64,000 bases of DNA. It comes from an uncultured Campylobacterales bacterium. GTDB lineage: Bacteria > Campylobacterota > Campylobacteria > Campylobacterales > QNZT01. The translations under genes were made by a program, and so were the position numbers. How positions within the stretch are numbered: position 1 is the stretch's first letter; every line of letters begins with the position of its first letter. The notes beneath the pieces are model-generated. The model was not told the origin of the DNA. It was given only the letters and a program-made list of their open reading frames with translations, and ran no database searches. The DNA lies in the NCBI GenBank assembly GCA_964560425.1, contig CAZLLE010000083.1, positions 51,743-115,742 on the forward strand. Reading direction: 5' to 3'. This document shows, one piece after another, positions 9,155 to 61,139 of this stretch.

Positions 9155-9981
9155 AATTTAACTCCATTTAATATATATGTTACTTTAGAATCTTCTATTT
9201 TAATAATAGAAAGTATAGTTCCTATTTTTAAAAAGTATTCACCTTCCTCTTTTATTTGAAAATTTTCAATATAGACTTTTTTGCCTAGGAGAATATCGTC
9301 ATGATCTGATAAATAGTAATTTTGTTTTACATTTAAATATTTTATTGGGTCTAATGCTATCTCTTTGTTGTAAAAAAGTTCTCCCTCATGAAGCCTCTCC
9401 AATGCACTTAAAGAGCCAAAGGTACCAAGTTTATTGGCTATTATATCTCCCATGCTTCTAATATATCCACCCTCTGAAATTGTTATTTCAAAGGTTAAAA
9501 ATGGATGATTATAATGAATAAGTTCTATTTTTGATATTGTACTTGTAATCTTTTTTAGATTGATCTCTTCATCATTTCTTGCTAGTTTATATGCTCTTTC
9601 ACCATTGATTTTTTTTGCTGAATATTTTGGTGGTAGATAGTCTATCTTCCCTTTGAGTGAATTTAGTGTTTGAATAATTTTTTCATGAGGGATATGTGGT
9701 ATCTCTTTTATTAAATCTACTTTCTCGATATCTAGTGTATCACTATGAGCTCCTAGCCAAAGTGTAGCTCTGTAGCTTTTTGGGCTTTTTTTGAGAAATC
9801 TAAAGAGCTTTGTATATTGTCCAAAAGCGATAATAAGTACACCTTTGGCAAATGGGTCTAATGTCCCTGAAAAACCAGCTTTTTTGGGCTGATAAGTTCT
9901 TTTTATTTTTGATAGATAACGGTTGGAACTCATAGATGCAGGTTTATATCCTACAAATAGTCTATTAATTGCTATTTTCAA
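9148..9981 (-). CDS. truB: tRNA pseudouridine(55) synthase TruB
   Basis: The catalytic motif is GTLDPFAKGVL. It overlaps csrA and uvrD by 7 nt and 4 nt. Confidence 0.92.
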   Translation of the reverse strand: MKIAINRLFVGYKPASMSSNRYLSKIKRTYQPKKAGFSGTLDPFAKGVLIIAFGQYTKLFRFLKKSPKSYRATLWLGAHSDTLDIEKVDLIKEIPHIPHEKIIQTLNSLKGKIDYLPPKYSAKKINGERAYKLARNDEEINLKKITSTISKIELIHYNHPFLTFEITISEGGYIRSMGDIIANKLGTFGSLSALERLHEGELFYNKEIALDPIKYLNVKQNYYLSDHDDILLGKKVYIENFQIKEEGEYFLKIGTILSIIKIEDSKVTYILNGVKLC

Positions 9982-12038
9982 ATTTTTTCTACAAATGAAG
10001 CTAGAATATCCCTCTGCTTACCACTAAAGTTTATTTTAAGCATATACTCTCTCTTGATTTTATTTACACCCAATACTCTACCAATACCAAATAGTTTATG
10101 TTTAACTAGCGTTCCTTTTTTGTAACAGGTTGTTTTTTCTAGTTTTAGTGAACCTTTGACTACTCCCGCTTCTGCTAAAAATCTACTTTGAAGTAGTCCT
10201 GCCCTTTTTCCTCTATAAAAACGACTAGCGGAGCTACTAAGGGTGAGTTCATCTTTGGCTCTTGTAAATGCAACATAAGCTAATCTTCTCTCCTCTTCTA
10301 TATCGTTTCCATCTCCAATTAGTGGGAAAAATCCCTCCTCTAATCCTATGACAAAGATATGTTCAAACTCTAATCCTTTACTAGCATGAATACTCATGAG
10401 TGAAACACTTTCATCATCAATTTGGTCTTGATCACTTCTTAGAGATATCTCATTTAGAAAAATATCTAATGAGGCATCATCATTCATCTGCATAAAATCT
10501 TTGAATAGAGCATAAAACTCCTCTATGTTTAGAACTCTCTCTAGTGAATTTGGTAAAGATTCATAATATGCTCTAATTTTGAAACTCTCTTCTAATCTAT
10601 CCATAAGTTCTGAGATTGGCTCATTATCTAAACTCTCTTTTATTTTGAGTATATTTTCACTAAATGATATGAGAGAGGTAAATGCTTTTTTTGTAATTTT
10701 ATCTTTGATTTCATCTAAGTTGTTTGTAATAAAACTAAATATTGAACAGTTTTTCTCTTTTGCTCCAAAAGATAGTTTATCTATAGTTGCTTTTCCTATC
10801 CCTCTTTTTGGTTTATTGATTACTCGCTTGATCGAAAAGTTATCATGTACATTTGAAATTAGGCGAAGATAAGAGATTATATCTTTGATCTCAGCTCTTT
10901 CGTAAAATTTTAGACCACCTACCATTTTATAGGGAATACTATTTCTATTAAATGACTCCTCCAATGATCTACTGAGTGCATTTATTCTATATATAATAGC
11001 AATCTCTTTTGGATTAACTTTCTTGGTTAAAATAAGTTTTTTTATGTGATTTGCAATAATATGAGCTTCTGCATTTTCATCTTGTGAATGGATAATTGTA
11101 ATCTCTTTACCATCCTCTTTGGTACCAATAAGCACTTTTCCTAGTCTCGTTCTATTGTGTTCTATAAGGCTATTTGCAACTTTCAGTATATTATTTGTTG
11201 ATCTATAGTTTTTTTCTAGTTTAATTGTTTTTGTATTTGGAAAGATTTGGTTAAATTCTAAAATATTTTTGATATTTGCACCACGCCAGCCATAAATACT
11301 TTGATCATCATCACCTACTACACATAGATTTTTATGAGAAGTAGTAAGTTTTTCTAAAAGTTTAAATTGTAAATCATTTGTATCTTGGTACTCATCTACC
11401 ATGATATATTGATATTTTTGGCTAATCTCTCTTGCTAAAGTAGGGTTTTGCTCTAATATTTGATAAGGCAGAGCCAATAAATCTTCAAAATCAACCAAGT
11501 TATTTTGTTTCAGATAATCATCATACTGTTTATAAATAGCTGCAATTTTCTTGTAATTTGGAAGTTGAGCCCCACTAATTGCTCTTTCGGGGGTCATGAG
11601 ATTATTTTTAAATCTAGATATTTCACTAGCTATTGTGGGTATTGGTAGATCTACATCAAAACTTTTTATAATTCTTTTTTTATCGTCACTATCAATGATT
11701 ACAAAACTATTAGATCTATTTAGATGATTTATATGATGTTTTAGAAAAAGTAGCCCAAATTTATGAAATGTACATAAAAGTGGCGTATAAGATATATCTG
11801 AATCAATCAGTGAAAGAGCACGATGTCGCATCTCATTGGCTGCTTTATTAGTAAAGGTTAAAGTTAAAATTGAAGATGGATGAATACCATTGGCAATAAG
11901 ATATGCAACTCTTGATGTGACTGTCTTTGTTTTCCCACTTCCTGCCCCTGCTAAAATAAGCACAGGTCCATCTATTGTCTGTACAGCCTCTATTTGTGGT
12001 GCATTAAGTGTGTCAAAAATAGTTGCCATCTTCTCCAT
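9978..12038 (-). CDS. uvrD: ATP-dependent DNA helicase, UvrD/PcrA family
   Basis: Motifs seen are Walker A AGAGSGKT, MVDEYQDTN, VGDDDQSIYGWRGA, NYRS and VAFTRAK. Confidence 0.93.
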   Translation of the reverse strand: MEKMATIFDTLNAPQIEAVQTIDGPVLILAGAGSGKTKTVTSRVAYLIANGIHPSSILTLTFTNKAANEMRHRALSLIDSDISYTPLLCTFHKFGLLFLKHHINHLNRSNSFVIIDSDDKKRIIKSFDVDLPIPTIASEISRFKNNLMTPERAISGAQLPNYKKIAAIYKQYDDYLKQNNLVDFEDLLALPYQILEQNPTLAREISQKYQYIMVDEYQDTNDLQFKLLEKLTTSHKNLCVVGDDDQSIYGWRGANIKNILEFNQIFPNTKTIKLEKNYRSTNNILKVANSLIEHNRTRLGKVLIGTKEDGKEITIIHSQDENAEAHIIANHIKKLILTKKVNPKEIAIIYRINALSRSLEESFNRNSIPYKMVGGLKFYERAEIKDIISYLRLISNVHDNFSIKRVINKPKRGIGKATIDKLSFGAKEKNCSIFSFITNNLDEIKDKITKKAFTSLISFSENILKIKESLDNEPISELMDRLEESFKIRAYYESLPNSLERVLNIEEFYALFKDFMQMNDDASLDIFLNEISLRSDQDQIDDESVSLMSIHASKGLEFEHIFVIGLEEGFFPLIGDGNDIEEERRLAYVAFTRAKDELTLSSSASRFYRGKRAGLLQSRFLAEAGVVKGSLKLEKTTCYKKGTLVKHKLFGIGRVLGVNKIKREYMLKINFSGKQRDILASFVEKI

Positions 12039-12200
12039 TACAGAACTCTTTTTTGTTTTATTTAAATAGATTATATAAAAAAGCTAATAAAAGTTTTATT
12101 ATTTATTATTTAACAATACTTATAATTGAATTTAATATTATTTTTGGTTATGTTTCATTATAATATATAAATAAAATTGATAGTTAGATAGGAATAAATA

Positions 12201-17749: not shown

Positions 17750-19957
17750 ATGTTAAATAAAGAGTTAAATTCAGTACTAAATGAGGCTTTAGAATTTGCT
17801 AAGAAGAGTAGGCATGAGTATGTAACTATTGAACATGTTTTCTATTCGTTGTTGACAAATGAACAAGCAATTGCGGTGTTAAAAAAATGTGGTGCTGATA
17901 CAGCTTTTTTATATGAGAGAATTAAAACACATCTTGATTCTGTATTTAAACCACTCCCAGAAGATAATTATCATGATCCATTTGAGACTGTTGCATTAGC
18001 AAGAGTGATTGATAATATGATTACACATATAAAGGGAGCAGATAAAAAACAGGCTAATGTTGGTGATCTATTAGCTGCTCTTTTTGAAGAAGAGAGATCT
18101 TATAGTGTCTATCTTCTTAAGCAACAAGGTGTATCAAGATTAAATATCTTAGAGGGTATTACAGAAGAGAAACATAAAGAGGATAGTTTAATTGAGCCTA
18201 AAGAGGATGGCGAATTAGCGAACTACACTATTAATCTAAATGAACTTGCAAGAAAAGGTAAAATTGACCCTGTGATTGGTCGAGAAGATGAACTTAGTCG
18301 TGTAATGCAAGTTTTGTGTAGAAGAAAGAAAAATAATCCTCTTTTAGTTGGTGAGCCTGGTGTTGGTAAAACAGCAGTTATTGAGGGTTTGGCTCTTAAA
18401 ATTATTAATGATGAAACACCTGATATTTTAAAAGGTGCAACACTTTTCTCTCTTGATATTGGTGGATTATTATCGGGTACCAAATATAGAGGTGATTTTG
18501 AAAAGAGACTCAAGGGTGTATTGAATGAGCTTGAAGAGATAGAAAACTCTGTCTTATTTATTGATGAGATTCATACTATTGTAGGAGCAGGCTCAACAAG
18601 TGGTGGTTCTATGGATCTATCAAACCTTCTTAAACCTGCTCTTGCATCGGGAAATATTAAATGTATTGGTGCTACGACATATAGTGAGTATAGAAGTTTT
18701 TTTGATAAAGATAAGGCACTAAGTCGTAGATTTGCAAAAGTAGATATTGATGAACCAACAATTGAAGATGCCTTTAAGATTGTTGTTGGTCTTAAAGATA
18801 AATATGAATCACATCATAATATTACTTATACAAATAAAGCTCTTAGAAGTTCAGTTGAACTTGCAAAAAAATATATTAATGATAGATTTTTGCCAGATTC
18901 AGCAATTGATTTGATTGATGAGGTTGGAGCTTCATTTCATATCCAAACACATGAAAGAAAGAGTGTAACAGTAAGAGATATTGAAGCAATTGTTGCAAAA
19001 ATGGCAAATATTCCGAGTCGTCAAGTTAATTCTGATGATAGAGATATATTAAAAAATCTTGAAGAAGAGTTAAAATCTAAAGTCTTTGGGCAAGATGAAG
19101 CAATTGTACAACTATCAAAAGCTGTAAAAAGAGGTAGAGCAGGGCTTGGTAAGCCAGAGTCTCCTATTGGATCATTTCTTTTTGCTGGACCTACAGGTGT
19201 TGGAAAAACTGAAGTTGCAAAGCAGTTATCTACTACACTTGGCATTCATTTTGAGAGATTTGATATGAGTGAATATATGGAGAAACATACAGTTAGTAGA
19301 CTTATTGGTGCTCCTCCTGGATATGTTGGATATGAAGAGGGTGGTCAGCTTACTGAGTCTGTAAGAAAACATCCTTATACTGTTTTACTTTTGGATGAGA
19401 TTGAAAAAGCACACCCTGATGTATTGAATATTTTACTTCAAGTAATGGATAATGCTACGCTGACAGATAATAATGGCGTAAAAACTGATTTTAGAAATGT
19501 TATTATTATTATGACTTCAAATTTGGGTGTTGCAGCTGCTCCAAAAGTTGGATTCCAAAAAGATGAGACGCATAAAACTGATAGTGCTATTAATGAATTT
19601 TTTGCTCCTGAATTTAGAAATAGATTAGATGCTGTCGTTCACTTTAAACCTCTTGGTAGAGATGTTATGATTAATATTGTTGAAAAACAGTTAATTGAAC
19701 TAGAGATGCTTCTAAAAGATAAAAAAGTTAGAATAGAAGCAACTACAAATGCAAAAGATTATTTTGCACAAAAAGGTTATAGTTCAACACTTGGTGCTAG
19801 GGTTATGGCTCGAATTATTCAAGATGAGGTAAAAACTCCATTGACTGATGAGGTTCTATTTGGTAAGTTGAGAAGTGGTGGTGTTGTGAAGCTTGATATG
19901 AAAGATGATAATCTTATTATTAGTTATGAGAGTGATAAAGAGATGGCGGTAATGTAG
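17750..19957 (+). CDS. clpA: ATP-dependent Clp protease ATP-binding subunit ClpA
   Basis: Two AAA+ modules are present (GEPGVGKT and GPTGVGKT) after a Clp N-domain. It lies immediately after clpS. Confidence 0.95.
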   Translation: MLNKELNSVLNEALEFAKKSRHEYVTIEHVFYSLLTNEQAIAVLKKCGADTAFLYERIKTHLDSVFKPLPEDNYHDPFETVALARVIDNMITHIKGADKKQANVGDLLAALFEEERSYSVYLLKQQGVSRLNILEGITEEKHKEDSLIEPKEDGELANYTINLNELARKGKIDPVIGREDELSRVMQVLCRRKKNNPLLVGEPGVGKTAVIEGLALKIINDETPDILKGATLFSLDIGGLLSGTKYRGDFEKRLKGVLNELEEIENSVLFIDEIHTIVGAGSTSGGSMDLSNLLKPALASGNIKCIGATTYSEYRSFFDKDKALSRRFAKVDIDEPTIEDAFKIVVGLKDKYESHHNITYTNKALRSSVELAKKYINDRFLPDSAIDLIDEVGASFHIQTHERKSVTVRDIEAIVAKMANIPSRQVNSDDRDILKNLEEELKSKVFGQDEAIVQLSKAVKRGRAGLGKPESPIGSFLFAGPTGVGKTEVAKQLSTTLGIHFERFDMSEYMEKHTVSRLIGAPPGYVGYEEGGQLTESVRKHPYTVLLLDEIEKAHPDVLNILLQVMDNATLTDNNGVKTDFRNVIIIMTSNLGVAAAPKVGFQKDETHKTDSAINEFFAPEFRNRLDAVVHFKPLGRDVMINIVEKQLIELEMLLKDKKVRIEATTNAKDYFAQKGYSSTLGARVMARIIQDEVKTPLTDEVLFGKLRSGGVVKLDMKDDNLIISYESDKEMAVM

Positions 19958-20599: not shown

Positions 20600-20649
20600 A
20601 TAAAAATTCAATTTTGACGATTTAACCCTATACAATAATAATAGGGATT

Positions 20650-23289
20650 TTGATGCGATATTTAGTTTTACTACTACTTCTTTTTACTTTTTCTAATGCT
20701 TTAAAAGTTGATGTGGAATATTTAAAAAGAGAGATATCTAATAATCCTCAAGAGATTAAATATAGGCTAATTTTGGCTAAATATTTTATTTCGCATGGGA
20801 ACAGTGTTGAAGCTAAAAAATATCTTCAAGAAGCTTTAGATATTGATTCTTCTAATAGAGATGCTATTAGTTATAAGCGTAGGCTTAATGAAGTTATAAA
20901 TTTTGAAAATTATCTGTTAACTCATGGTATTAATAATTTAAACCAAAAGAGTAAAATTTTTATTTTGCTTAATACTCTTTTTGATAAAAAAAACTATCAA
21001 GAGTATATCTCTGTTTATGAAAATTTAAATAGTATAAATGTTTCACTTAATCAAAAAAGTCATCTGCAAGCCATAAAATCATATTTGTCTATTGGAGATA
21101 CTCTTCATGTTCGTGCTATTTTAGATAAAAATTTAATAAAAAACTATAGTGATACTCTTTGGGCGGAAGCTAGAATCTGTATATTAGAAGAAAAATATAG
21201 TTGTGCTAGGGAATATTATCACAAATTACTTTCTCAAAGTTTAGATGAGAAATATTTTATAGAGCTTTTTGATTTGGCTGAAAAGAGGGTAGATTCTAAA
21301 GAGTTAGAGCTTCTTTATAGAGAGGTAAAATTACTATTTCCTAATAGAATGGTATCCAAAAATATAGCTCAAAAGTTTGGTAAATATAGAGATAAGGTGT
21401 TGAACTCTCTTCAAAGCAGTTATTATAAAAATAGAACATTAAATTCATTGCGACCTTATGCTTATAAACTACATGAAGTGGGTAAAATTGATGAATCAAT
21501 AGATGAGATAAAGAAGTTTATAGTTACTAATCCTAACGATAATGGGGCAAAATATCTTTTGGCAAAGATATACTCTTGGAGTGGTTATCCTCAAAAATCT
21601 ATATCTACACTAACTCCAGTTATAGATGATAATGGTGATAATTATGAGCTATTATCCTTTTTTGTTGATAATCTATATCAGGTGGGGGATTATAAAAGAT
21701 CTATTTTTTATCTTAATAGAATGTCGAAGTTGACAACAGATAAAGATGAACTCTCTAAAATAGATAAAAAATTATCTTCGCTCTTAAAACTTCGTAAAGA
21801 AAAATCTACAATAGAAGCTCAAGATTTTCTCTCCAAAGCTATAAAATATCACGAAGAGAAATCTTATAAATTAGCAATTTCATATTATGAGAAATATTAT
21901 AATTTTACTAAAGATAAAAAAATAACTAAAGAGATTGCTGAATTATCATTTTTAGTAGGGGATTTAGTAAAAGCTGAAAAATTTTATAGAATCTATCTAT
22001 TTACTTATCCTGATGATTTTTTTATGAATTTTAGATATGCCACTCTATTAGAAAGTAAAAGAGAGTATCAAAAAACTATACCTCTACTCAAAAGAGTTGT
22101 TAGTGCTAGAGATGAAAATTATTATTTAGCTAAGTACCATTTAGCCTTTAATCTAATGCTTCTTGATAATGATAGAAGTTGGCTAGAGTCTAGAAAGATT
22201 TTTCATTCATTAAAAGATGAGCTTACTTCTGATGAGAGTTATAAAGGATCAAAAAGTATGCTTCCTTTGATTACTCAAGCTTTGAAAAAGGTTGATAAGG
22301 AGCGTCCAAAAGCCTCTTCTTATAAAGATATTATGCTTGGAGCTGGACAAAAGAAGGTGATTGATGATGATATTTTTTATCCTATAAGTATAAAAATGGT
22401 TGATTCACTCTCTACATCTTCGCTTCTTGGTGTAGCTGAGAAGTTAAAAAATGATAAGCCTAGAGAAAAAATCACTCTAGAGTATAGATCTATAAATGAT
22501 GATACTATTTTTAGTACTAATTATGGTATTAGAGGTCGTAATCTAATCACTGTAGCTGGAAGACAATTTGGTGCAAGTGTAAATAAATTTAAGATTCGTA
22601 CAGATGAAAAAGAGCATGAAGCTACAACTGTTGCTCTGAATATGAACACAAAAAATATTAATGTTTCTATAGGTTTTAATAAATTTGCCGATTTTACAGA
22701 AGTAGTACCCAAGATTGAATATTCACAAAAAGTGGCAAACCATAATATAAATGTTGGATTATCTTATCAAAATGGTCTGTTTTCAAATTATCGTCAACAG
22801 ATGGTTGAATCAAAAGTAAAAAATTTACAGCTTACTTTTTATGATGCGATATTGTTACATAATTTAGAACATTCAGAAGTTTGGGCTCAGGCTAGTATTT
22901 ATGATAATGATGCTCAAGGTTATAGTTTGGGTTTTAATTATCCTCTATGGAAAATAGCTACTGATAATGCTCAATTACCTTTTCTTGTAAATGGTAATTA
23001 TGAATACAACACAAATCCAGAGGCTTCTTATAGTCCTTCTGAATTTTATGATTCAAATTTTATTGATGTTCGCCCCAAATTATCTTTAGGTAGAGGTACT
23101 TATCTATCAGGTTTGGGTGGTATGGGATATTCACTAGAGAGTAAGGATATGTTATTTCATTATGGTCTTAGTTCTAGTATATTACTTTTTGATGTGGTTG
23201 AGTTTTTATTAAATTGTCAGCATATGCAGAGTCAGTATAGTAAGTATGGCTCTGATGAGTGTAGTGCAAATCTGGGATATGTATGGTAA
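20650..23289 (+). CDS. TPR-repeat plus C-terminal beta-barrel outer-membrane exopolysaccharide export protein (PgaA/BcsC-like)
   Basis: It has a signal peptide (LLLLLFTFSNA), about 550 aa of TPR-like helical repeats, and a last ~300 aa with an alternating-strand pattern ending ANLGYVW. The likely true start is ATG 20653, after AGGGA. Confidence 0.75.
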   Translation: MMRYLVLLLLLFTFSNALKVDVEYLKREISNNPQEIKYRLILAKYFISHGNSVEAKKYLQEALDIDSSNRDAISYKRRLNEVINFENYLLTHGINNLNQKSKIFILLNTLFDKKNYQEYISVYENLNSINVSLNQKSHLQAIKSYLSIGDTLHVRAILDKNLIKNYSDTLWAEARICILEEKYSCAREYYHKLLSQSLDEKYFIELFDLAEKRVDSKELELLYREVKLLFPNRMVSKNIAQKFGKYRDKVLNSLQSSYYKNRTLNSLRPYAYKLHEVGKIDESIDEIKKFIVTNPNDNGAKYLLAKIYSWSGYPQKSISTLTPVIDDNGDNYELLSFFVDNLYQVGDYKRSIFYLNRMSKLTTDKDELSKIDKKLSSLLKLRKEKSTIEAQDFLSKAIKYHEEKSYKLAISYYEKYYNFTKDKKITKEIAELSFLVGDLVKAEKFYRIYLFTYPDDFFMNFRYATLLESKREYQKTIPLLKRVVSARDENYYLAKYHLAFNLMLLDNDRSWLESRKIFHSLKDELTSDESYKGSKSMLPLITQALKKVDKERPKASSYKDIMLGAGQKKVIDDDIFYPISIKMVDSLSTSSLLGVAEKLKNDKPREKITLEYRSINDDTIFSTNYGIRGRNLITVAGRQFGASVNKFKIRTDEKEHEATTVALNMNTKNINVSIGFNKFADFTEVVPKIEYSQKVANHNINVGLSYQNGLFSNYRQQMVESKVKNLQLTFYDAILLHNLEHSEVWAQASIYDNDAQGYSLGFNYPLWKIATDNAQLPFLVNGNYEYNTNPEASYSPSEFYDSNFIDVRPKLSLGRGTYLSGLGGMGYSLESKDMLFHYGLSSSILLFDVVEFLLNCQHMQSQYSKYGSDECSANLGYVW

Positions 23290-24605
23290 AGGGGAGTGTA
23301 ATGAAGCAGGAACTCGATCAGGGTAATGTTTTTGTAATTGATGGTGATGAAAATGTTTGTATATTATCACATGTCTTACAACTGCAACATAGATATTTTG
23401 CAAATAAGATGTTATTTATATCATCAAAAGAGTCTTCATCTATAAAAGGTAATTTACAATATTTAAAAGATAAATTAGAGAAATTTGATGATATATATGC
23501 GAGGTTAAAATTTCTTTTTTTAAAAGAGTCTTGGCAAAATTTAAATGAAAAGTATGGAAACTCTTTTTTTAAAAATGAGTTAAATGATATTATTGGACAT
23601 GAGGGAGTAGGGACTATCTATTTTCATCATATTGATCTATTTTTTGATAATTTAGCTCCTCATGATATGCATGTTATTGTGAGTGATATTATTGGATTAG
23701 TTAAATATCATCATAAAAAAATTATTTTTTCATATAGTTCCAAACTTAGATTAGGATCAGTTTTAGATGATTTAATGCAAGAGTTTGTCGATATCACTTA
23801 TCATGTAACTAAAAATAGTGAACAAGTCTGTATGAATGAGGTTTTTTTTCATAAAAAGAGTGTTGTAAATCTTCTTCTTTTGACTCAAGATCCTCTTTTG
23901 GTAAAGTTTCATAGTTATATTTTTGATTGTCTAGGGCTTGTTAATTTTTTACATCTAGATGAGTTGACTAATGAGAATAAAGATAAATTATATAATGCAG
24001 ATATTATTGTATATCATTTGGCTGATGAAAAATTAAAAAATATGCTTTTAGAGTGGAATAATCAGAAAAAAGTCAAATCAAAACTTTTTCAACTTAGTTT
24101 TGAAAATTTGCATAGAAAACAAGATAAAATTATGGAGCTTCAAAGTGGATTTGACCATATTTTTGAACAAAATTTTGATCTACTAGATTATCTATTTCAT
24201 ATAGAAAATAGTGTCAAAGATAACTTTTATACTAAGAAGATGAAATATCTCCCTGTATTAAAAAATGCTGTTATTTTCGATGAAGGCATTTTTAAAAGGC
24301 AAATTGTTGACTTTATAGATAAAGAGATATTCTTCTCTATTGTAGTTATCTATTATGAATCAAGATATAAAATTGAGCTTCCACATTTAGAAGAGCTTAT
24401 TAGAGAAAATGATTATATCTATTTTGATGCAGGTGAGAGTAGAATAGTTTTTCTAATGTTGAATATGTTACCAACAACAGCGTATATGCTTTTAAAGTCT
24501 AGATTAGAAAAATCGCATATTTATATCAAAAAGCATCAGTTACATTGTGTAAATGATCTATATCCTACACTCTCTCATAAAAAAGAGACTGTATATGCTA
24601 CTTAG
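23283..24605 (+). CDS. cytoplasmic three-module protein with degenerate GGDEF (RxxD retained); candidate c-di-GMP receptor (BcsE/PelD-like)
   Basis: No TM segments. The C-terminal REND-YIYFD-AGESR-IVFLML aligns with RKSD-TFARW-GGEEF-VIILSQ of the cyclase at 59832-61139. The better start is ATG 23301, preceded by AAGGGGAG. Confidence 0.55.
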   Translation: MVKGSVMKQELDQGNVFVIDGDENVCILSHVLQLQHRYFANKMLFISSKESSSIKGNLQYLKDKLEKFDDIYARLKFLFLKESWQNLNEKYGNSFFKNELNDIIGHEGVGTIYFHHIDLFFDNLAPHDMHVIVSDIIGLVKYHHKKIIFSYSSKLRLGSVLDDLMQEFVDITYHVTKNSEQVCMNEVFFHKKSVVNLLLLTQDPLLVKFHSYIFDCLGLVNFLHLDELTNENKDKLYNADIIVYHLADEKLKNMLLEWNNQKKVKSKLFQLSFENLHRKQDKIMELQSGFDHIFEQNFDLLDYLFHIENSVKDNFYTKKMKYLPVLKNAVIFDEGIFKRQIVDFIDKEIFFSIVVIYYESRYKIELPHLEELIRENDYIYFDAGESRIVFLMLNMLPTTAYMLLKSRLEKSHIYIKKHQLHCVNDLYPTLSHKKETVYAT

Positions 24606-24619
24606 AGGAGGGTATAGAC

Positions 24620-25918
24620 ATGGTTAGAATATTGTTTCTATTTTTTATATTGCTATTTTTATCTTATACAAGTCTTACACAGCTGAATAATCTCTATCTG
24701 TATGGGGATACATTTGTTAAGTATGGAATTATTTTTATCTTAGTTTTCTCTTTGATTGTAATTGCTAGATATTTTATTCTGTTGCTTCTTTCGATGTTAA
24801 ATCTCTTTAGACATGTTAAATCTAAACAGAAGTATAACTATTATCATCAAAAAAAAGTTACTATTATTGTCCCTTGTTTTAATGAAGATAAGGTAATTAA
24901 AGCTTCATTAGAGTCTCTAAAAAAGCAGACATATCAAAATTATGAGATTATTGTTGTAGATGATGGTAGTAGTGATGATACTTTTAAAATTGCAAAACGG
25001 ATGGAATTTAATGATGGAAAGTGTAGGTTAATTGCTGTTACAAAAGAGAATGGTGGTAAAGCTAATGCTCTTAATCTTGGTATAGAGATGGCAAAGGGTG
25101 AGCTATTTTTGGCGGTTGATGCCGATTCTGTCCTCTCAAGAGATGCCTTGGAATTGATGGTTCCATATTTTGATGATCCTCGTGTGGGGGCTGTTGCTGG
25201 TTCTGTTTATGTTGTAAATCAAGATAATTTATGGACAAAACTTCAAGCTTTAGAGTATATTCAAGGATTAAATTTAGTAAGAAATGGTCAAGCGTATCTA
25301 AAACTTGTCAATATTATTCCCGGTCCCATTGGTATGTTTCGTCGTGATGCTGTATCCTCTTTGGGTGGTTATAGTGATGATACTTATGCAGAAGATTGTG
25401 ATTTGACTCTTAGATTAATCAATGAAAATTATAAAATTGATTATGAGATTGATGCTGTCTCATATACTGAAGCACCAGAGGAGCTTTTGGATCTACTAAA
25501 ACAGAGATATCGTTGGACAAGAGGTATTTTGCAATCTATTTTGAAGCATAAAATGAAGCTTGTCAATATCTTTTCAAATTTTTCGATGAGTATGGTTCTA
25601 TGGTATATGGTATTTGAGGCATTTTTATGGCCATTTGCCTCAATATTTGCAAATGTTTTTATTGTCTATCTAGGGGTTAGTTCTTCTCATAGTGAACTTC
25701 TTCTATATTGGTGGGTAATGTTTACAGTATTGGATGTTGTGGCTAGTATCTATTGTGTAAGTGTAACAAAAGAGCGTATGGGGCTTGTTTGGTACTCTCT
25801 CTATTATCGTATCTTTTTTATTAATGTGATTAATATAGCAAAGGTATTGGCAACTATTGAAGAGTTGTTTGGAATAGAGATGAGTTGGGGTAAATTAGAG
25901 AGAAAAGGAAAAATTTAA
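24620..25918 (+). CDS. processive family-2 glycosyltransferase (PgaC/IcaA/NodC-like polysaccharide synthase)
   Basis: It has 2 N-terminal and about 3 C-terminal TM helices. Motifs are VVDDGSSDD, AVDADS, AEDCDLT and QRYRWTRG. No PilZ domain is present. Confidence 0.88.
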   Translation: MVRILFLFFILLFLSYTSLTQLNNLYLYGDTFVKYGIIFILVFSLIVIARYFILLLLSMLNLFRHVKSKQKYNYYHQKKVTIIVPCFNEDKVIKASLESLKKQTYQNYEIIVVDDGSSDDTFKIAKRMEFNDGKCRLIAVTKENGGKANALNLGIEMAKGELFLAVDADSVLSRDALELMVPYFDDPRVGAVAGSVYVVNQDNLWTKLQALEYIQGLNLVRNGQAYLKLVNIIPGPIGMFRRDAVSSLGGYSDDTYAEDCDLTLRLINENYKIDYEIDAVSYTEAPEELLDLLKQRYRWTRGILQSILKHKMKLVNIFSNFSMSMVLWYMVFEAFLWPFASIFANVFIVYLGVSSSHSELLLYWWVMFTVLDVVASIYCVSVTKERMGLVWYSLYYRIFFINVINIAKVLATIEELFGIEMSWGKLERKGKI

Positions 25919-25920
25919 TC

Positions 25921-26121
25921 ATGGATATTAATATATTAGAAATTTTATCTTATACAGTTGTTACTATTACTGTATTGACAATGATATTTGGTGTTATTGC
26001 TTACTCTTTTTATAAAATTAGAGAGAGCAGGAGAAATGCTCAAAAAGATAATGCTCAAAATGAAGATAATGTATTGGAAAAAGATGAGTATCTATTTTTT
26101 GATGAGAAGGAGATTTTATGA
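25921..26121 (+). CDS. 66-aa single-pass membrane protein (possible synthase partner, PgaD/IcaD analogue)
   Basis: One TM segment (YTVVTITVLTMIFGVIAYSFY) is followed by a basic then acidic tail. It starts 2 nt after the GT2 stop and overlaps the next gene by 4 nt. Confidence 0.6.
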   Translation: MDINILEILSYTVVTITVLTMIFGVIAYSFYKIRESRRNAQKDNAQNEDNVLEKDEYLFFDEKEIL

Positions 26122-27986
26122 ATGTTGCAATAGATGAAAAAAAAGATTATTATGTTGCAAAATTGGGATTATCTCTAATTTTTTTGTTTGCCATTATGGC
26201 ATTTATGATGTACAAAATTCAACAAGGATCTGAAAATAGTGAAACTAAACCAAATTTTGCTGTACCAGTTCTTACTAATAACCCTATTTATATTGTAAAA
26301 TCATACTCCACTGCTTTAACATTTAGTAAAAATGGTTTAAGTAGTGATACTTATATTGAAAAATTGGACTCATTTAAAAAGTTTTTATCAGCAATGGGAT
26401 ATAAATCTTCCTATATTGATGAGGATAAAATTGGTTTATTAGATAAAAAAAGTATACTATTTTTACTTGATGCTGTATCTTTGAGTGATAGTGCTAAAGA
26501 TGGAATTAAGCTATTTACAAAAAATGGTGGATCACTATTTTTTAACTTTAATACAGGTTTTAGTGATGGTGATGGTAAATATATTGGAGATCAATTTGTA
26601 AATGATATTACCTCTTTGAAACTTAGTAAAAAGGGTTTTGTTAAATTTGAAGATGGTATTTTTATGACAAAAAAATTGCTTACCCCTATGTCCTCTTCTT
26701 ATCAAATGGGTGAACTACTATATCTTGTAATATATGATAATATTCCTATTTATGATAACCCAAATAGATTAAAACCAGATCTTATGGCATTGGCTTATAA
26801 TCAATCTTCTCCTCCTCGCGGTAAAGATAATATTGAAAAATTGACATTTTCTGAATCTGGAATAGGTTGGAGCGGTTATTATGGATATGGTAGATGGATT
26901 TATCTAAATTTCCCTAGTTACTCTTTTTATGAGACAGAAGGTAAAAGTAGTGAATTTGCAAAATTATTAAATGGCATGATCGATTATCTCTCTTCTGATA
27001 TCATTGTGGAAAAATTTCCTTATATTGATGAAGAGAGTGCTATATTCATATCAGAGGATACAGAGTATAGATTTGAAAATTTTGAAAAATTTTCTGATTT
27101 ATCTTTAAAGTATCAGATACCTGTAACAGCATTTATTGTAGCTAATTTAGCAGAAAATCCTCAGTATAAAGATTTAATGGCGAAAGTAGCAAAAAATCCA
27201 TATTTAGAGTTTGCTTCACATAGTACCTCACACAAAAAAATTGTTGGTGAATCAGAGGAATTTATCAAAAATGAGACAGTTGGTTCAAAAAACATAATTG
27301 ATAGATATGCACCAACTCCTATTGTTGGATTTAGACCTCCTAGAGAAGAGCTAAATGATATGATGAAAAAGTATCTACAAGAGGGTGGTTATAAATTTAT
27401 TTTACCAAAAACACAACAATATCTTTATCCTAAATTTGATGAAAAGTATAGAAATATCATGATGATTCCTCGCCATGGGACAGATGATTATGGTTATTTG
27501 GTAAATTTAGATTGGGATCAAAAGACAATTATAGATCAGATGAAAGAGGAGGCTAACTTTATTACTTATTTGAATGGTATATATACTTTGAGTATGCATA
27601 CACACCTCTTTGCTTATGATACAAATATCAATATTGTAGATAGGTTTTTTCAATATATCAAAAAAAACCCACAGCTTAAACCTCTTTCTGGGGCTCAAAT
27701 TTATAATAAAGTTACAGAAGCGATGGGGATAGATATCTCTTCTACTGTTCAATCAAATAGATTAGTTATTAGTGTAAAAAATAGTAATAGTAAAATTGTT
27801 AAAAATTTAAGTTTGAGGATTTTCAAAAATCCTTTGGATAAAATAGAAAAATTAGAATCAAATATGGAAAATATTACTCTTAAAATAAATAAACAAAGCG
27901 ATCAAGAGGTAGATATAAATATCAAAACTTTACAGCCAAATTCAGAGGTTCTACTTTTTGTAAACTATAAAAGAGAGAAAAGATGA
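26118..27986 (+). CDS. membrane-anchored polysaccharide deacetylase (CE4/NodB) with N-terminal domain of unknown function
   Basis: It has an N-terminal TM anchor. CE4 motifs are SEDTE, ASHSTSHKK, GFRPPREE and LSMHTHLF. The ~300 aa before and ~110 aa after the CE4 core are unassigned. Confidence 0.8.
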   Translation: MNVAIDEKKDYYVAKLGLSLIFLFAIMAFMMYKIQQGSENSETKPNFAVPVLTNNPIYIVKSYSTALTFSKNGLSSDTYIEKLDSFKKFLSAMGYKSSYIDEDKIGLLDKKSILFLLDAVSLSDSAKDGIKLFTKNGGSLFFNFNTGFSDGDGKYIGDQFVNDITSLKLSKKGFVKFEDGIFMTKKLLTPMSSSYQMGELLYLVIYDNIPIYDNPNRLKPDLMALAYNQSSPPRGKDNIEKLTFSESGIGWSGYYGYGRWIYLNFPSYSFYETEGKSSEFAKLLNGMIDYLSSDIIVEKFPYIDEESAIFISEDTEYRFENFEKFSDLSLKYQIPVTAFIVANLAENPQYKDLMAKVAKNPYLEFASHSTSHKKIVGESEEFIKNETVGSKNIIDRYAPTPIVGFRPPREELNDMMKKYLQEGGYKFILPKTQQYLYPKFDEKYRNIMMIPRHGTDDYGYLVNLDWDQKTIIDQMKEEANFITYLNGIYTLSMHTHLFAYDTNINIVDRFFQYIKKNPQLKPLSGAQIYNKVTEAMGIDISSTVQSNRLVISVKNSNSKIVKNLSLRIFKNPLDKIEKLESNMENITLKINKQSDQEVDINIKTLQPNSEVLLFVNYKREKR

Positions 27987-29224
27987 AACCTTTAGCCACT
28001 GCGGTACTATTAGTTATCGGAGTATTGGGTTCAATTATTTATGATGTGGAGAGGGGAGATATAAATTTCCCCTATCCTTCTCATATTGCTTATACTTATG
28101 GTTCTATTTCTCCCACTAGTAATACACAAGAAGAGAAAGATAAGATAGTAAGTGACTATTATGATATATGGAAAAAAAATTATCTTATAAAAGAGACAAA
28201 TAGTACATTACCCCTCTATAGAATTGCTACAGATATTAATAATATAACAAGAACCGTCTCTGAAGCACAAGGTTACGGCATGATTATTACTGCTATTATG
28301 GCAGGATATGATAAAGATGCCAAAGAGATTTTTGATGGTCTGTGGAGATTCTCTCGTCTCTATCCTAGCTCAATATCTTCTGATCTGATGGCATGGGAGA
28401 TTCCCAAAAAAGTAAAAAACTCAAATAGTGCTTTTGATGGTGATACTGATATGGCTTATGCACTATTAATAGCAGATAAACAATGGGGTTCTTCTGGAGA
28501 TATTCACTATACAAATGAGGCAAAAAAATTAATAGAAGCAATCTACAAATATACTATAGGAAAAGATAGTAAACTTCCTCTTCTTGGGGATTGGGAAGAC
28601 CCTTATGGTGAAAAATTTAACCAATTTACCCCTCGAACCTCTGATTTTATGTTGAGAAATTTTAGATCTTTTTATGCTTTTACTAAAGATAACAGGTGGT
28701 TAGAAGTTTTGGAAGCTTCACAATTAGCACTTATGAGTTTTCAAAAATATAGTGCACCATATACTGGATTGGTATCTGATTTTATTAAATTTGATTATGA
28801 AAAAAATTATTTTGTACCAACTCAACAACATTTTTTGGAGACTCATGATAATGCTTTTTATTATAATGCGTGTAGAGTACCACTTCGTATAGGAATGGAT
28901 GCTCTTTTGAGTGGAGATGATAGATCAATAGATATTACACAAAATATATCCTCATGGATTATTAATAGTACAAATGGAGATCCTACACTTATAAAAGGTG
29001 GATACATGATGGATGGTAAAGTGATTGGCAATTTTTTTACTACAGCTTTTGCCTCTCCTCTAGCCGTAGCTAGCATGCTCTCGCCAAAAGATCAAATATG
29101 GCTAAATAAAAATTATGATTTTATAAAAGATAGAGTAGAAAATTATTATGAAGATAGTTTAAATCTACTCTCTCTTTTAGTTTTGAGTGGTAATTTTTGG
29201 GACTCTGCTAAAACCCCAAAATAG
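27983..29224 (+). CDS. glycoside hydrolase family 8 (BcsZ/chitosanase-like)
   Basis: It has an N-terminal signal/anchor. GH8 signatures are TVSEAQGYGMII and SAFDGDTDMAYALLIADKQWG. Confidence 0.85.
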   Translation: MKPLATAVLLVIGVLGSIIYDVERGDINFPYPSHIAYTYGSISPTSNTQEEKDKIVSDYYDIWKKNYLIKETNSTLPLYRIATDINNITRTVSEAQGYGMIITAIMAGYDKDAKEIFDGLWRFSRLYPSSISSDLMAWEIPKKVKNSNSAFDGDTDMAYALLIADKQWGSSGDIHYTNEAKKLIEAIYKYTIGKDSKLPLLGDWEDPYGEKFNQFTPRTSDFMLRNFRSFYAFTKDNRWLEVLEASQLALMSFQKYSAPYTGLVSDFIKFDYEKNYFVPTQQHFLETHDNAFYYNACRVPLRIGMDALLSGDDRSIDITQNISSWIINSTNGDPTLIKGGYMMDGKVIGNFFTTAFASPLAVASMLSPKDQIWLNKNYDFIKDRVENYYEDSLNLLSLLVLSGNFWDSAKTPK

Positions 29225-30329
29225 ATATATTTGCATATCTCTCATATGCCCATATCGCAGCAATTATTGCTGTGATAAATGATCCTCCATAAACTACGAT
29301 ATTTCGATAATAGATACTCTCTCTTGCCAAAAATATATATGGTAATATTACTAGAACAATGATTAGTTGACCTATCTCTACGCCTACATTAAATCCAAAA
29401 AGCATACCTACTAAAGTTATATCTTCTAATAGTAGCTCTTTTAATACATTGGCAAATCCAAAGCCATGAATTAATCCAAATCCAAATGCTAAAAACCATA
29501 TTTTTGATTTTATAAAACCAAATAGATTATTTATAGCAGTAAATAAAACTGATAGAGCTATGGCAATCTCTATATATCTTGAATCGATATCAACTATATC
29601 AATTACACTTAGTACTAAGGTAATGGAGTGAGCAACACTAAAGGCTGTTACTATCTTTGCTACTTCTATAAAAACTTTTTTGAATGAATTATATGTTTTT
29701 AACTCTTTGTTCTCATAATAGTAGATAGCAGGAAGAAGTAGCATGAGTAAGAATAGAATATGATCAAAACCTATCCATATATGCCAAATACCTTCTATTA
29801 GAAAGTTTTTAAATGCTCCCAATGTACTTCTTGCTTCCATATCTATTTCATAACTAGTGGATCTTTGGCTTAAAATTATGGGTTTAGTTTGATTGCTCTC
29901 ATTTACTCTTACAAATGCTTTTTGATTTTTGTCTATAGTGAAAAATAGATCATAATTTATTTTAAGAACTTTTTCTGGTTTAGGACAGAGGAGATGCATA
30001 TCAAGTTTAATATATGATTGATGGGAACCTCTTTGATGTGCTGTATATTTTTTTATTTTAAATCTACATTGTTGTCCATCAGAATATACTTGAAAGTGTC
30101 TAAACACATAAGGTAGTATCTCTTTTTTGTGTGCTTTTAGTTCATTCCATGAGACAACTTTATTTTGATTGTCATCAAGAGAAAACATCTCTTCTAATAT
30201 AACACTCCCAAAATCTAAACTAATTTTAATTGGATCTGAGTTTAGATTAATATCTATAAAATTCTCTTTTAATACATCTGCATAAGAGATTTGTAACATG
30301 ACTAAAATAGCAACTATTATCTTTTTCAT
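29208..30329 (-). CDS. HupE/UreJ-family membrane protein with N-terminal periplasmic domain
   Basis: It has a signal peptide, a soluble region of about 170 aa, then 6 TM helices with WIGFDHILFLLMLLL and HGFGFA motifs. Its 3' end overlaps the GH8 gene by 17 nt. Confidence 0.7.
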   Translation of the reverse strand: MKKIIVAILVMLQISYADVLKENFIDINLNSDPIKISLDFGSVILEEMFSLDDNQNKVVSWNELKAHKKEILPYVFRHFQVYSDGQQCRFKIKKYTAHQRGSHQSYIKLDMHLLCPKPEKVLKINYDLFFTIDKNQKAFVRVNESNQTKPIILSQRSTSYEIDMEARSTLGAFKNFLIEGIWHIWIGFDHILFLLMLLLPAIYYYENKELKTYNSFKKVFIEVAKIVTAFSVAHSITLVLSVIDIVDIDSRYIEIAIALSVLFTAINNLFGFIKSKIWFLAFGFGLIHGFGFANVLKELLLEDITLVGMLFGFNVGVEIGQLIIVLVILPYIFLARESIYYRNIVVYGGSFITAIIAAIWAYERYANISILGF

Positions 30330-59831: not shown

Positions 59832-61139
59832 TTGGTAAAATATATGAAAAAAAATCGAAGTATTGTCAAAACCTTTTTTATTAGCATGTCAACAGTTATT
59901 TTCTCATTGGTTCTAATTGTTGTTATTCTTTCTGTATATCAGAGTAGTTTTGATATTGATCCTACTTTTAGAGAGTTCAGTAACGGCATTCTAGACTCTC
60001 TTTTTGCAATTAGAACTAGTCAATTGCTTTTTATTGCCTTTTTTGCAGTGGTTATCTCTATTATCATTGCATATTTTATATCTTCAAATATAGAGAAAAA
60101 TTTTGATGTTTTTCATCTTTACTTCCATAAAGCTGCACATAAATTAGAAAAAATAGATACAAATAAATTACAGTTTGATGAATTTATTAGTCTTGCAAAT
60201 TCTGTTAATACTATGATAGATAGTATTAATGAAGCACATAAAGAGTTAGAGTGGAATCAAAAATATCTTCAGGCAATATTAGAGGCACAGACAAACATGG
60301 TATTGGTTTTATCAAGTGCTGAAAATGATATTATAGAGAGTGTAAATCAAGCGTTTTTAAACTATTTTGAAGTAGAAAGTATTGAAGAGTTCTATTATGA
60401 GTATAACTCTTTGACTGATGTACTAAAATATGAAGATTTGATGCTTAAAGATATATCAATTAATGATAAAAAATGGTTTGAATATATTTTAGAGAATCCA
60501 TCAATTACGCATAAAATTGTGATTGAGAGGGAGTCTTTGGATGATACTTTTATTGTTACAGCTAGTTTGGTGGATATAGAAAATGTTTATCGTGTTGTAA
60601 TTGCTCTTCATAAAGTAACAGAGTTAGAAGAGCAGAGAAAGATGTTTGAAAAAGAGGCATCTACTGATACTTTGACAAGAATTGCAAATAGATTAAAATT
60701 CAATGCCGTTTTAGAACAGCAGGTAGAGATTTCAAAAAGATATGGTGATGATCTTTCGATAATACTTTTTGATATTGATAACTTTAAAATGATTAATGAT
60801 ACTTATGGACATCAAGTTGGGGATAATGTTCTTGTAGAACTCTCTGCTGTTATTAGTGAATCTGTTAGAAAAAGTGATACTTTTGCGAGATGGGGAGGAG
60901 AGGAATTTGTAATTATTTTGTCTCAAACATCTCTTGAAACAGCTAAGATTTTAGCTGAAAAACTAAGAGAAAAAGTTGCTGGATACTCTTTTAGTGATAA
61001 TCTTGATGTTACTTGTAGTTTTGGTGTTGCTCAATATCAAAATATGGAGCCTATTTCTGATTTTCTCAAGCATGTAGATGATGCACTCTATCAAGCAAAG
61101 GATGCTGGTAAAAATATTGTTGTGAGTGATATATATTAA
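59832..61139 (+). CDS. membrane-bound diguanylate cyclase (2 TM, linker, PAS-like, GGDEF with I-site)
   Basis: Motifs are DTLTRIANR, FDIDNFKMINDTYGH and RKSD-x5-GGEEF. The likely true start is ATG 59844. Confidence 0.9.
   Translation: MVKYMKKNRSIVKTFFISMSTVIFSLVLIVVILSVYQSSFDIDPTFREFSNGILDSLFAIRTSQLLFIAFFAVVISIIIAYFISSNIEKNFDVFHLYFHKAAHKLEKIDTNKLQFDEFISLANSVNTMIDSINEAHKELEWNQKYLQAILEAQTNMVLVLSSAENDIIESVNQAFLNYFEVESIEEFYYEYNSLTDVLKYEDLMLKDISINDKKWFEYILENPSITHKIVIERESLDDTFIVTASLVDIENVYRVVIALHKVTELEEQRKMFEKEASTDTLTRIANRLKFNAVLEQQVEISKRYGDDLSIILFDIDNFKMINDTYGHQVGDNVLVELSAVISESVRKSDTFARWGGEEFVIILSQTSLETAKILAEKLREKVAGYSFSDNLDVTCSFGVAQYQNMEPISDFLKHVDDALYQAKDAGKNIVVSDIY

Follow-up and report, generated by a model that had tools for sequence, protein, structure and literature searches.

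In a 64,000-nucleotide (nt) stretch of DNA from an uncultured Campylobacterales bacterium, hereafter the window, an open reading frame at 23283–24605 on the forward strand (ORF X) encodes a cytosolic BcsE-like protein of 440 residues, or of 434 residues when counted from its probable start at nt 23301. Judged from its sequence and its predicted structure, ORF X is a catalytically dead, three-domain cytosolic protein and a very remote relative of BcsE, which regulates cellulose secretion in enterobacteria. By analogy with BcsE, we estimate a probability of roughly 60% that it acts as a sensor of cyclic di-GMP (c-di-GMP), which would be tethered by a small membrane protein and would activate an exopolysaccharide (EPS) synthase lacking a PilZ domain. 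BcsE is composed of a degenerate nucleoside triphosphatase (NTPase), a degenerate receiver (REC) and a degenerate GGDEF domain, of which the last carries the canonical I-site R415TGD, while the REC domain contributes a second I-site, R306ATD, that together with R415TGD clamps an intercalated c-di-GMP dimer (PMC7439463, PMC7840130). BcsF, a single-pass peptide of ~60 residues, tethers the N-terminal domain of BcsE via a β-strand from its cytosolic tail (PMC11470070). An original prediction, made from the sequence alone, had proposed a c-di-GMP receptor in this frame; the frame proved to be real, and its 440-residue translation is the sequence quoted there.

A word-indexed sequence search with ORF X found four close relatives only, and HMMER, run exhaustively against 1.84 billion cluster representatives, returned 74 relatives at E < 1e-3, mostly of 400–490 residues. 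The family is unannotated, as its members are unnamed or labelled 'hypothetical protein' and lack a Pfam domain. ORF X itself had no match to Pfam at E ≤ 0.1, to NCBIfam or, by tblastn, to plasmids, and the PDB sequences yielded only a chance lectin match (E = 2). Subsequently, 57 full-length members were aligned, which share 15–33% identity with ORF X, plus one at 87%. Only three columns of this alignment are invariant, namely R272, Y310 and R368 (alignment numbers count from M7, ORF numbers such as R278 and R374 from the ORF start).

ORF X contains just two RxxD motifs, and R272 and R368 are their arginines. The first motif, RKQD (24114–24125; ORF residues 278–281), is situated at the start of helix 4 of the degenerate REC domain as the putative counterpart of BcsE I-site II (R306ATD), and retains R272 in 57/57 and D275 in 55/57 homologues. 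The second, REND (24402–24413; ORF residues 374–377), immediately precedes strand β2 of the C-terminal domain as the putative counterpart of BcsE I-site I (R415TGD), with R368 in 57/57 and D371 in 56/57 homologues. REND had been recognised in the original prediction and is real, but the second motif in the middle domain had been missed. A lone RxxD in ORF X would not be significant, because 0.64 such motifs are expected from composition at this length. From the alignment, the significance of the two motifs lies in their conservation across the 57 homologues and not in their presence. The third invariant residue, Y310, belongs to an F-Y pair (24225–24230) within the interdomain helix and linker (24216–24281; helix 309–315 in the model described below), in which F309 is found in at least 90% of the alignment.

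Fold of ORF X and its link to BcsE

An AlphaFold2 model of ORF X was built with the 57-sequence alignment and shows three α/β domains, with a mean predicted local distance difference test score (pLDDT) of 89.9 and a predicted template modelling score (pTM) of 0.78. Comparison of such a model with BcsE in Foldseek had been proposed as a check on the original prediction. In a search of the PDB with the full model, the four best matches were the full-length E. coli BcsE chains 9fo7_E, 9fp0_E, 9fnn_E and 9fnn_U, all from cryo-electron microscopy structures of the Bcs macrocomplex (E 2.4e-12 to 8.2e-12 over ~487 alignment columns). These E values are 4–5 orders of magnitude better than those of PleD (2v0n, 2e-8) or of the many KaiC matches (~1e-7), which came next together with DgcR and FlaH (TM-score 0.53 on the target). 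Global TM-scores are low (~0.25), which is to be expected of flexible proteins with three domains.

The N-terminal domain (23301–23858) is RecA/KaiC-like according to its KaiC and FlaH fold matches and to weak Pfam matches in family members, which comprise KaiC (8 members, best 2.4e-5), AAA_14 and DnaB_C. In the clade of the window protein (IDGDENVCILSH), the Walker A motif is lost: the corresponding columns (23343–23372 in the window) read DxxENxC, with both Gly and Lys gone, which confirms the RecA/KaiC-type N-terminus lacking Walker A that had been predicted. ORF X as an active ATPase was rejected for the window clade. Elsewhere in the family, a Walker-A-like GxxxxGKLT, in which Leu takes the place of the usual Ser/Thr, is retained in 40/57 members together with a Walker-B-like hhhhHRxD strand; Leu instead of Ser/Thr follows the Walker A Lys in 41/57. 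On this alignment, the BcsE-type N-terminal domain occurs in the family both with and without a P-loop. Taken as a whole, the family seems to be related to the corresponding domain of BcsE, which has no such GK motif, but to have decayed less.

The middle domain (23859–24215) has the β/α topology of a receiver in the AlphaFold2 model, and Response_reg was matched in 6 members (best 0.004), which bears out the receiver-like reading proposed earlier. The domain is degenerate, since the phospho-acceptor column, which holds His in ORF X, is mostly Asn or His across the family and has Asp in 5/57 members only. Combined, the model with its fold matches, the weak Pfam matches and the hhalign comparison confirm the predicted order of a RecA/KaiC-like, a degenerate REC and a degenerate GGDEF domain.

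The C-terminal domain (24282–24575) is a minimal ferredoxin-like domain which we interpret as a degenerate GGDEF domain. A model of this domain by itself (pLDDT 87.6) shows a helix-β-α-β-β-α-β-α order with the RxxD directly before the hairpin. Its best fold match is the GGDEF domain of DosC (4zvf, E 4.9e-3, TMq 0.46), and other GGDEF domains were matched at TM-scores of 0.37–0.45 (5m3c, 7a7e, 8wcn, 7e6g, 4yme). Hence a similarity to the GGDEF fold, on which the original prediction depended, was found, yet it is marginal at a TM-score of 0.46. An hhalign comparison of this domain alone with BcsE residues 363–450 gave p = 0.033, with the RxxD in register.

That prediction had also taken AGESR for the decayed GG(D/E)EF position. 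Indeed, REND (residues 374–377) lies five residues ahead of AGESR (24429–24443; residues 383–387), and the same spacing occurs in the diguanylate cyclase of the window (RKSD-TFARW-GGEEF, ORF 59832–61139). This spacing is explained by the length of strand β2. AGESR itself forms the β2-β3 hairpin turn where the GGDEF signature would be and is not conserved: homologues of 82–96% identity have TDESR, ESEGR or EESRK there, and across the 57 members all five columns are variable, the first two being gaps in 16–18/57. AGESR as a relic of the GGDEF signature was therefore rejected in favour of a variable hairpin turn. ORF X was likewise rejected as an active cyclase, as neither it nor any of the 57 members matches PF00990 and no GG(D/E)EF signature is present.

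At the sequence level, hhalign aligned the family with E. coli BcsE and with a 16-sequence BcsE alignment in one collinear alignment of 322–337 columns (E 0.027 and 0.011, the latter with 337 columns). In this register, both RxxD motifs of ORF X fall on R306ATD and R415TGD, with the family pattern 'vR..Dk...GC' on BcsE 'LRATDERLLLACGAN' and 'R..D..Y.D' on 'RTGDIMTIG'; hmmsearch also aligned RKQD with BcsE LRATDE. When applied to 119 real BcsE sequences, the hidden Markov model (HMM) of the family gave a median of 4.7 and a maximum of 13.6 bits. The maximum among 600 shuffled controls was 1.1 bits, and fewer than half of them were reported at all. The sequence signal between the family and BcsE is thus, by these comparisons, faint but real, and it has the same register as the structural match. 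The choice of BcsE as a model, made in the original prediction, is supported by the fold matches, the motif register and the collinear alignment together, and thus on firmer grounds than were offered there.

Further likenesses to BcsE are the spacing of the two RxxD motifs, on REC helix 4 and before GGDEF strand β2 (96 residues apart in ORF X, 109 in BcsE), and the presence of only a short helix between β1 and β2 of the GGDEF domain. In contrast, ORF X is about 10–12% identical to BcsE and about 85 residues shorter, and it occurs in Campylobacterota instead of Enterobacteria. A further large-database search with the family profile returned more unannotated members only, and no PF10995 sequence bridging to BcsE. 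ORF X was not filed as a member of the BcsE family because it fails the curated BcsE model and lacks the BcsE partners.

The operon and its conservation

The translation of ORF X probably starts at M7 (ATG at nt 23301), because an RBS-like (ribosome-binding site) sequence, AAGGGGAG, lies 5 nt upstream and homologues align from this residue. The genes around it are tightly packed or overlapping on the forward strand: the porin gene stops at 23289 and is followed by ORF X (23301–24605), a family 2 glycosyltransferase (GT2) gene (24620–25918), a small ORF (25921–26121), a family 4 carbohydrate esterase (CE4) gene (26118–27986) and a family 8 glycoside hydrolase (GH8) gene (27983–29224). This packing makes the six genes look like one operon.

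The first gene (20650–23289) encodes a protein of 879 residues with tetratricopeptide repeat (TPR) matches in Pfam and a signal-peptide-like N-terminus; its C-terminal region is presumed to be an outer-membrane porin serving as an export scaffold. The GT2 is a membrane synthase of 432 residues resembling PgaC, NodC and hyaluronan synthase (HAS). Only GT2 families were matched in Pfam, and no PilZ domain was found in the Pfam and NCBIfam scans of this protein, which bears out the synthase without PilZ that had been predicted. Its best curated family is TIGR03937 PgaC_IcaA (2e-60), at 204.9 bits and thus below the cutoff of 422, and its matches among PDB sequences are hyaluronan, cellulose and chitin synthases. 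The small protein encoded directly after it has 66 residues and a single membrane pass, and ends in a YLFF(D/E)EKE(I/L) tail.

The CE4 protein is a membrane-anchored polysaccharide deacetylase of 622 residues (Polysacc_deac_1, 1.2e-12), in which only residues 319–427 or so form the CE4 domain. It has no match among PDB sequences, and the ~300 N-terminal residues past the anchor and the ~190 C-terminal residues, for which neither a family nor a PDB match was found, are conserved in all loci. The secreted GH8 hydrolase matches Glyco_hydro_8 and is closest to the GH8 chitosanases 1v5c and 7cju (2.2e-82 against PDB sequences). The combination of a GH8 chitosanase-like enzyme, a CE4 deacetylase and a PgaC/NodC-like GT2 suggests a β-1,4-linked, partly de-N-acetylated N-acetylhexosamine (HexNAc) polymer. 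Based on these sequences, the product of the operon may be a secreted chitosan-like (β-1,4 GlcN/GlcNAc) polymer and not poly-N-acetylglucosamine (PNAG) or cellulose, which suggests that this EPS system fits neither Pga nor Bcs.

To follow the operon beyond the window, 24 related loci were collected and searched with the window proteins. In every locus with sufficient flanks, ORF X is accompanied by the TPR-porin, the GT2, the small membrane protein and the CE4 deacetylase, although the identity of ORF X across the syntenic loci ranges from 25 to 96%. Within the cluster, conservation is highest for the GT2 (1e-150 to 1e-216 across loci, far above ORF X), and a TPR-porin homologue adjoins ORF X in every related locus with flanks. 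Wherever the locus extends past the GT2, a single-pass homologue of the small protein (60–71 residues, E 1e-11 to 1e-35) follows directly, and a deacetylase of ~612 residues is present in all related loci with enough flank. Two arrangements were found: in the closer clade, the genes run porin-X-GT2 and are joined by the GH8 gene, which occurs there only; in the distant loci, they run X-porin-GT2, with a protein of ~330 residues in the place of GH8. The named records among these loci are Campylobacterales and Sulfurospirillum metagenome-assembled genomes, the loci vary in GC content between 30% and 53%, and the operon is conserved in Campylobacterota from vents, seeps and sediments.

The small proteins of the different loci share a transmembrane helix, a basic YK(I/L)RE.RR stretch, a variable linker and a C-terminal (K/E)YLFFEEKE(I/L). 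This tail is strongly conserved even where ORF X is only 20–30% identical, and from its sequence it looks like a docking strand. The 66-residue protein is a candidate tether for ORF X with a BcsF-like architecture, with a PgaD-like role as the alternative.

Proposed c-di-GMP control and competing explanations

The window encodes a genuine diguanylate cyclase of 435 residues (59832–61139, forward strand), which is membrane-anchored and PAS-like, matches the GGDEF family of Pfam at 1e-45 and has both GGEEF and its RKSD I-site intact. The genome therefore makes c-di-GMP. The cyclase gene lies 35 kb from the operon and is not syntenic with it.

By analogy with BcsE, RKQD on the REC domain and REND on the degenerate GGDEF domain would close over an intercalated c-di-GMP dimer. 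The N-terminal domain of ORF X would be anchored to the inner membrane through the co-conserved single-pass protein of ~65 residues, whose YLFFEEKEIL tail may add a strand to the N-terminal β-sheet, as BcsF does for BcsE. Ligand-bound ORF X would then activate or stabilise the PilZ-less PgaC-like GT2, whereby polymer synthesis would be coupled to c-di-GMP. Given the CE4 and the GH8 chitosanase-like enzyme, the polymer made would probably be the partly de-N-acetylated β-1,4 HexNAc chain described above, and it would be exported through the TPR-porin. Such control of a PilZ-less synthase by ORF X is plausible and fits the fully conserved synteny. The resemblance to the BcsE/BcsF pair is one of architecture, with cytosolic NTPase-REC-GGDEF domains in degenerate form, and of setting, since both belong to a synthase-dependent EPS cluster with a single-pass membrane protein of ~60 residues and a cytosolic tail.

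Several observations weigh against a BcsE-like sensor. None of the 57 members matches Pfam GIL (PF10995) at E ≤ 1, a family model matched by all BcsE controls, and the hhalign probability between the family and BcsE is only 2–4%. With the C-terminal domain alone, Foldseek against the PDB gave nothing below E 1e-3, the GGDEF matches were interleaved with ACT, S6, Atx1 and BMC ferredoxin-like folds, and the degenerate GGDEF domain of BcsE itself was absent from the top 50. Since this fold search is not clean, the assignment of a degenerate GGDEF domain is based mainly on the match of the full-length model, together with motif register and topology. The 66-residue protein does not match BcsF (PF11120), for which the E. 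coli BcsF control scored 1.9e-34. No cyclase or phosphodiesterase gene adjoins the operon in any locus examined. The operon also lacks BcsQ and BcsR, as well as BcsA, so that the best-established role of BcsE, the recruitment of BcsRQ, cannot apply. Finally, the Walker-A-like GxxxxGKLT kept in most members means that NTP binding may matter in those proteins.

The strongest competitor of the sensor reading, though we regard it as improbable, is control of the Pga type. PgaC and PgaD jointly bind c-di-GMP; here, the GT2 and the small membrane protein, as an analogue of PgaD, would sense the ligand, and ORF X would serve only as an assembly scaffold or chaperone, with its RxxD motifs being structural or binding another ligand. 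PgaC_IcaA as the best curated family of the GT2 (2e-60), the small membrane protein directly after the GT2 in every locus and its failure to qualify as BcsF by sequence all point in this direction. However, PgaD has two transmembrane helices and about 137 residues, whereas the small protein has one helix and 60–71 residues. Furthermore, the strongest constraint in ORF X is the invariant RxxD pair in the BcsE register, and a role as a scaffold alone hardly accounts for it.

Somewhat less probable still is an NTP-dependent or phospho-relay-type assembly factor, in which a KaiC/RecA-like ATPase and a REC domain would organise or energise secretion independently of c-di-GMP. Members with GxxxxGKLT and the hhhhHRxD strand (40/57), the KaiC, AAA_14 and DnaB_C matches in Pfam, and the strong KaiC and FlaH fold matches are in line with it. 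The changes in the N-terminal and REC domains argue the other way: the Walker A Gly and Lys are lost in the window clade, Leu replaces Ser/Thr after the Lys in 41/57, and the REC phospho-acceptor Asp survives in only 5/57. In addition, the invariant residues sit in the REC and GGDEF halves and not in the P-loop.

We consider it quite unlikely that convergence or a modelling artefact accounts for the likeness to BcsE and that ORF X is an unrelated protein of unknown function. The weak statistics (hhalign E 0.011–0.033, probability below 4%), the missing GIL match and the ambiguous fold search with the single domain might favour this reading. Against it, independent lines of evidence agree: the three domains follow the same order as in BcsE, one collinear alignment brings both motifs into register, the family HMM distinguishes genuine BcsE sequences from shuffled ones, and the genomic setting is of the same kind, since the synthase-dependent EPS operon includes a small protein with a single membrane pass.

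Up to now, BcsE has been regarded as peculiar to cellulose systems of the E. coli type, where it stands beside a PilZ-bearing synthase and acts through BcsRQ. Literature searches turned up neither a BcsE-like protein in Campylobacterota nor an operon of this type. The presence of a remote BcsE-like family locked into a different EPS operon of another phylum suggests that the tandem-I-site sensor module is not confined to cellulose systems but is general and transferable as a regulator. A more tentative idea, which we think has less than an even chance of being right, is that a BcsE/BcsF-type pair is an ancient portable module of EPS machines. In Campylobacterota it would form the only c-di-GMP input, switching on a PilZ-less synthase of a chitosan-like polymer, and the P-loop members would represent the ancestral nucleotide-binding state from which the dead NTPase of BcsE arose. 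Since neither PilZ nor BcsRQ is present, the system of ORF X could reveal what a BcsE-type protein does alone. Moreover, the family is invisible to Pfam and NCBIfam, and its recognition names dozens of 'hypothetical proteins'; the operon itself is an uncharacterised EPS system whose enzyme set (HexNAc-type GT2, CE4 and GH8 chitosanase-like) points to a chitosan-like matrix polymer.

Comparison with known systems and further observations

Compared with the E. coli-type (type II) Bcs system, the operon has a PilZ-less PgaC-like GT2 instead of BcsA, a CE4 deacetylase and a GH8 chitosanase-like enzyme instead of BcsB, BcsZ and BcsG, no BcsQ or BcsR, and a small partner outside the BcsF family. PgaABCD, which makes poly-β-1,6-GlcNAc, shares with it a TPR-porin, a GT2 of about 430 residues, a small inner-membrane partner and a CE4 deacetylase. 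It differs in that the GT2 of the operon reaches 204.9 bits against the PgaC_IcaA cutoff of 422, the deacetylase is anchored in the inner membrane and has another architecture, a GH8 chitosanase-like hydrolase takes the place of the hydrolase domain of PgaB, the small partner has one transmembrane helix, and a BcsE-like gene is added.

PleD-type REC-REC-GGDEF cyclases form the second-best class of fold matches for ORF X (2v0n) and share with it a REC followed by a GGDEF fold and an RxxD I-site five residues before the hairpin. In contrast to them, ORF X lacks GG(D/E)EF and the catalytic residues, has a truncated GGDEF core and a degenerate REC phospho-acceptor, and begins with a RecA-like domain instead of a REC domain.

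PelD and PssE resemble ORF X in concept, as a dead GGDEF domain with RxxD in an EPS operon that provides c-di-GMP control for a glycosyltransferase without PilZ. PelD is membrane-anchored and contains a GAF domain; a GH8 hydrolase (PssZ) and a deacetylase likewise belong to the Pss system. ORF X has no transmembrane segment (maximum Kyte-Doolittle 19-residue average of 1.38) and no GAF domain, and it carries additional NTPase and REC domains and a second RxxD. PelD, named as a comparison in the original prediction, is a poor one, and a PelD-like identity was rejected, because ORF X lacks a transmembrane segment and no GAF match was found in it or the family members. PelD was also not among the top fold matches of either the full-length protein or the C-terminal domain, and no comparison with PelD or PssE, by sequence or by fold, ranked above BcsE. 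The Listeria Pss system with PssE is c-di-GMP dependent (PMC4125290).

Around the operon, a scan for promoters and terminators was uninformative in this AT-rich DNA; a promoter-like site at 20614–20642, ahead of the TPR-porin gene, is weak evidence. An Rfam scan of the whole window found no match to an RNA family.

The conserved ~330-residue protein in the place of GH8 is encoded at 18104–19099 in locus L004, 8220–9200 in L007 and 17959–18957 in L011. It has no Pfam domain, and it might be a hydrolase or lyase of a so far unrecognised kind that acts on the same polymer.

Next to the operon in the window, a HupE_UreJ_2 membrane protein is encoded on the reverse strand (29208–30329, Pfam 1.5e-45), and its membership in the system is uncertain. 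A homologue adjoins the cluster in most loci, both close and distant (L011 18938–20068, L012 9662–10792, L010 7–456), and in one arrangement it lies directly upstream of ORF X on the same strand. As a member of a Ni/Co-permease-type family, it might, speculatively, supply metal to the metal-dependent CE4 deacetylase.

In locus L007, BcsQ-like and BcsC-like genes (9856–12166, reverse strand) are situated immediately downstream of a distant operon of the ORF X type, on the other strand. Systems of this type and canonical cellulose systems can therefore coexist.

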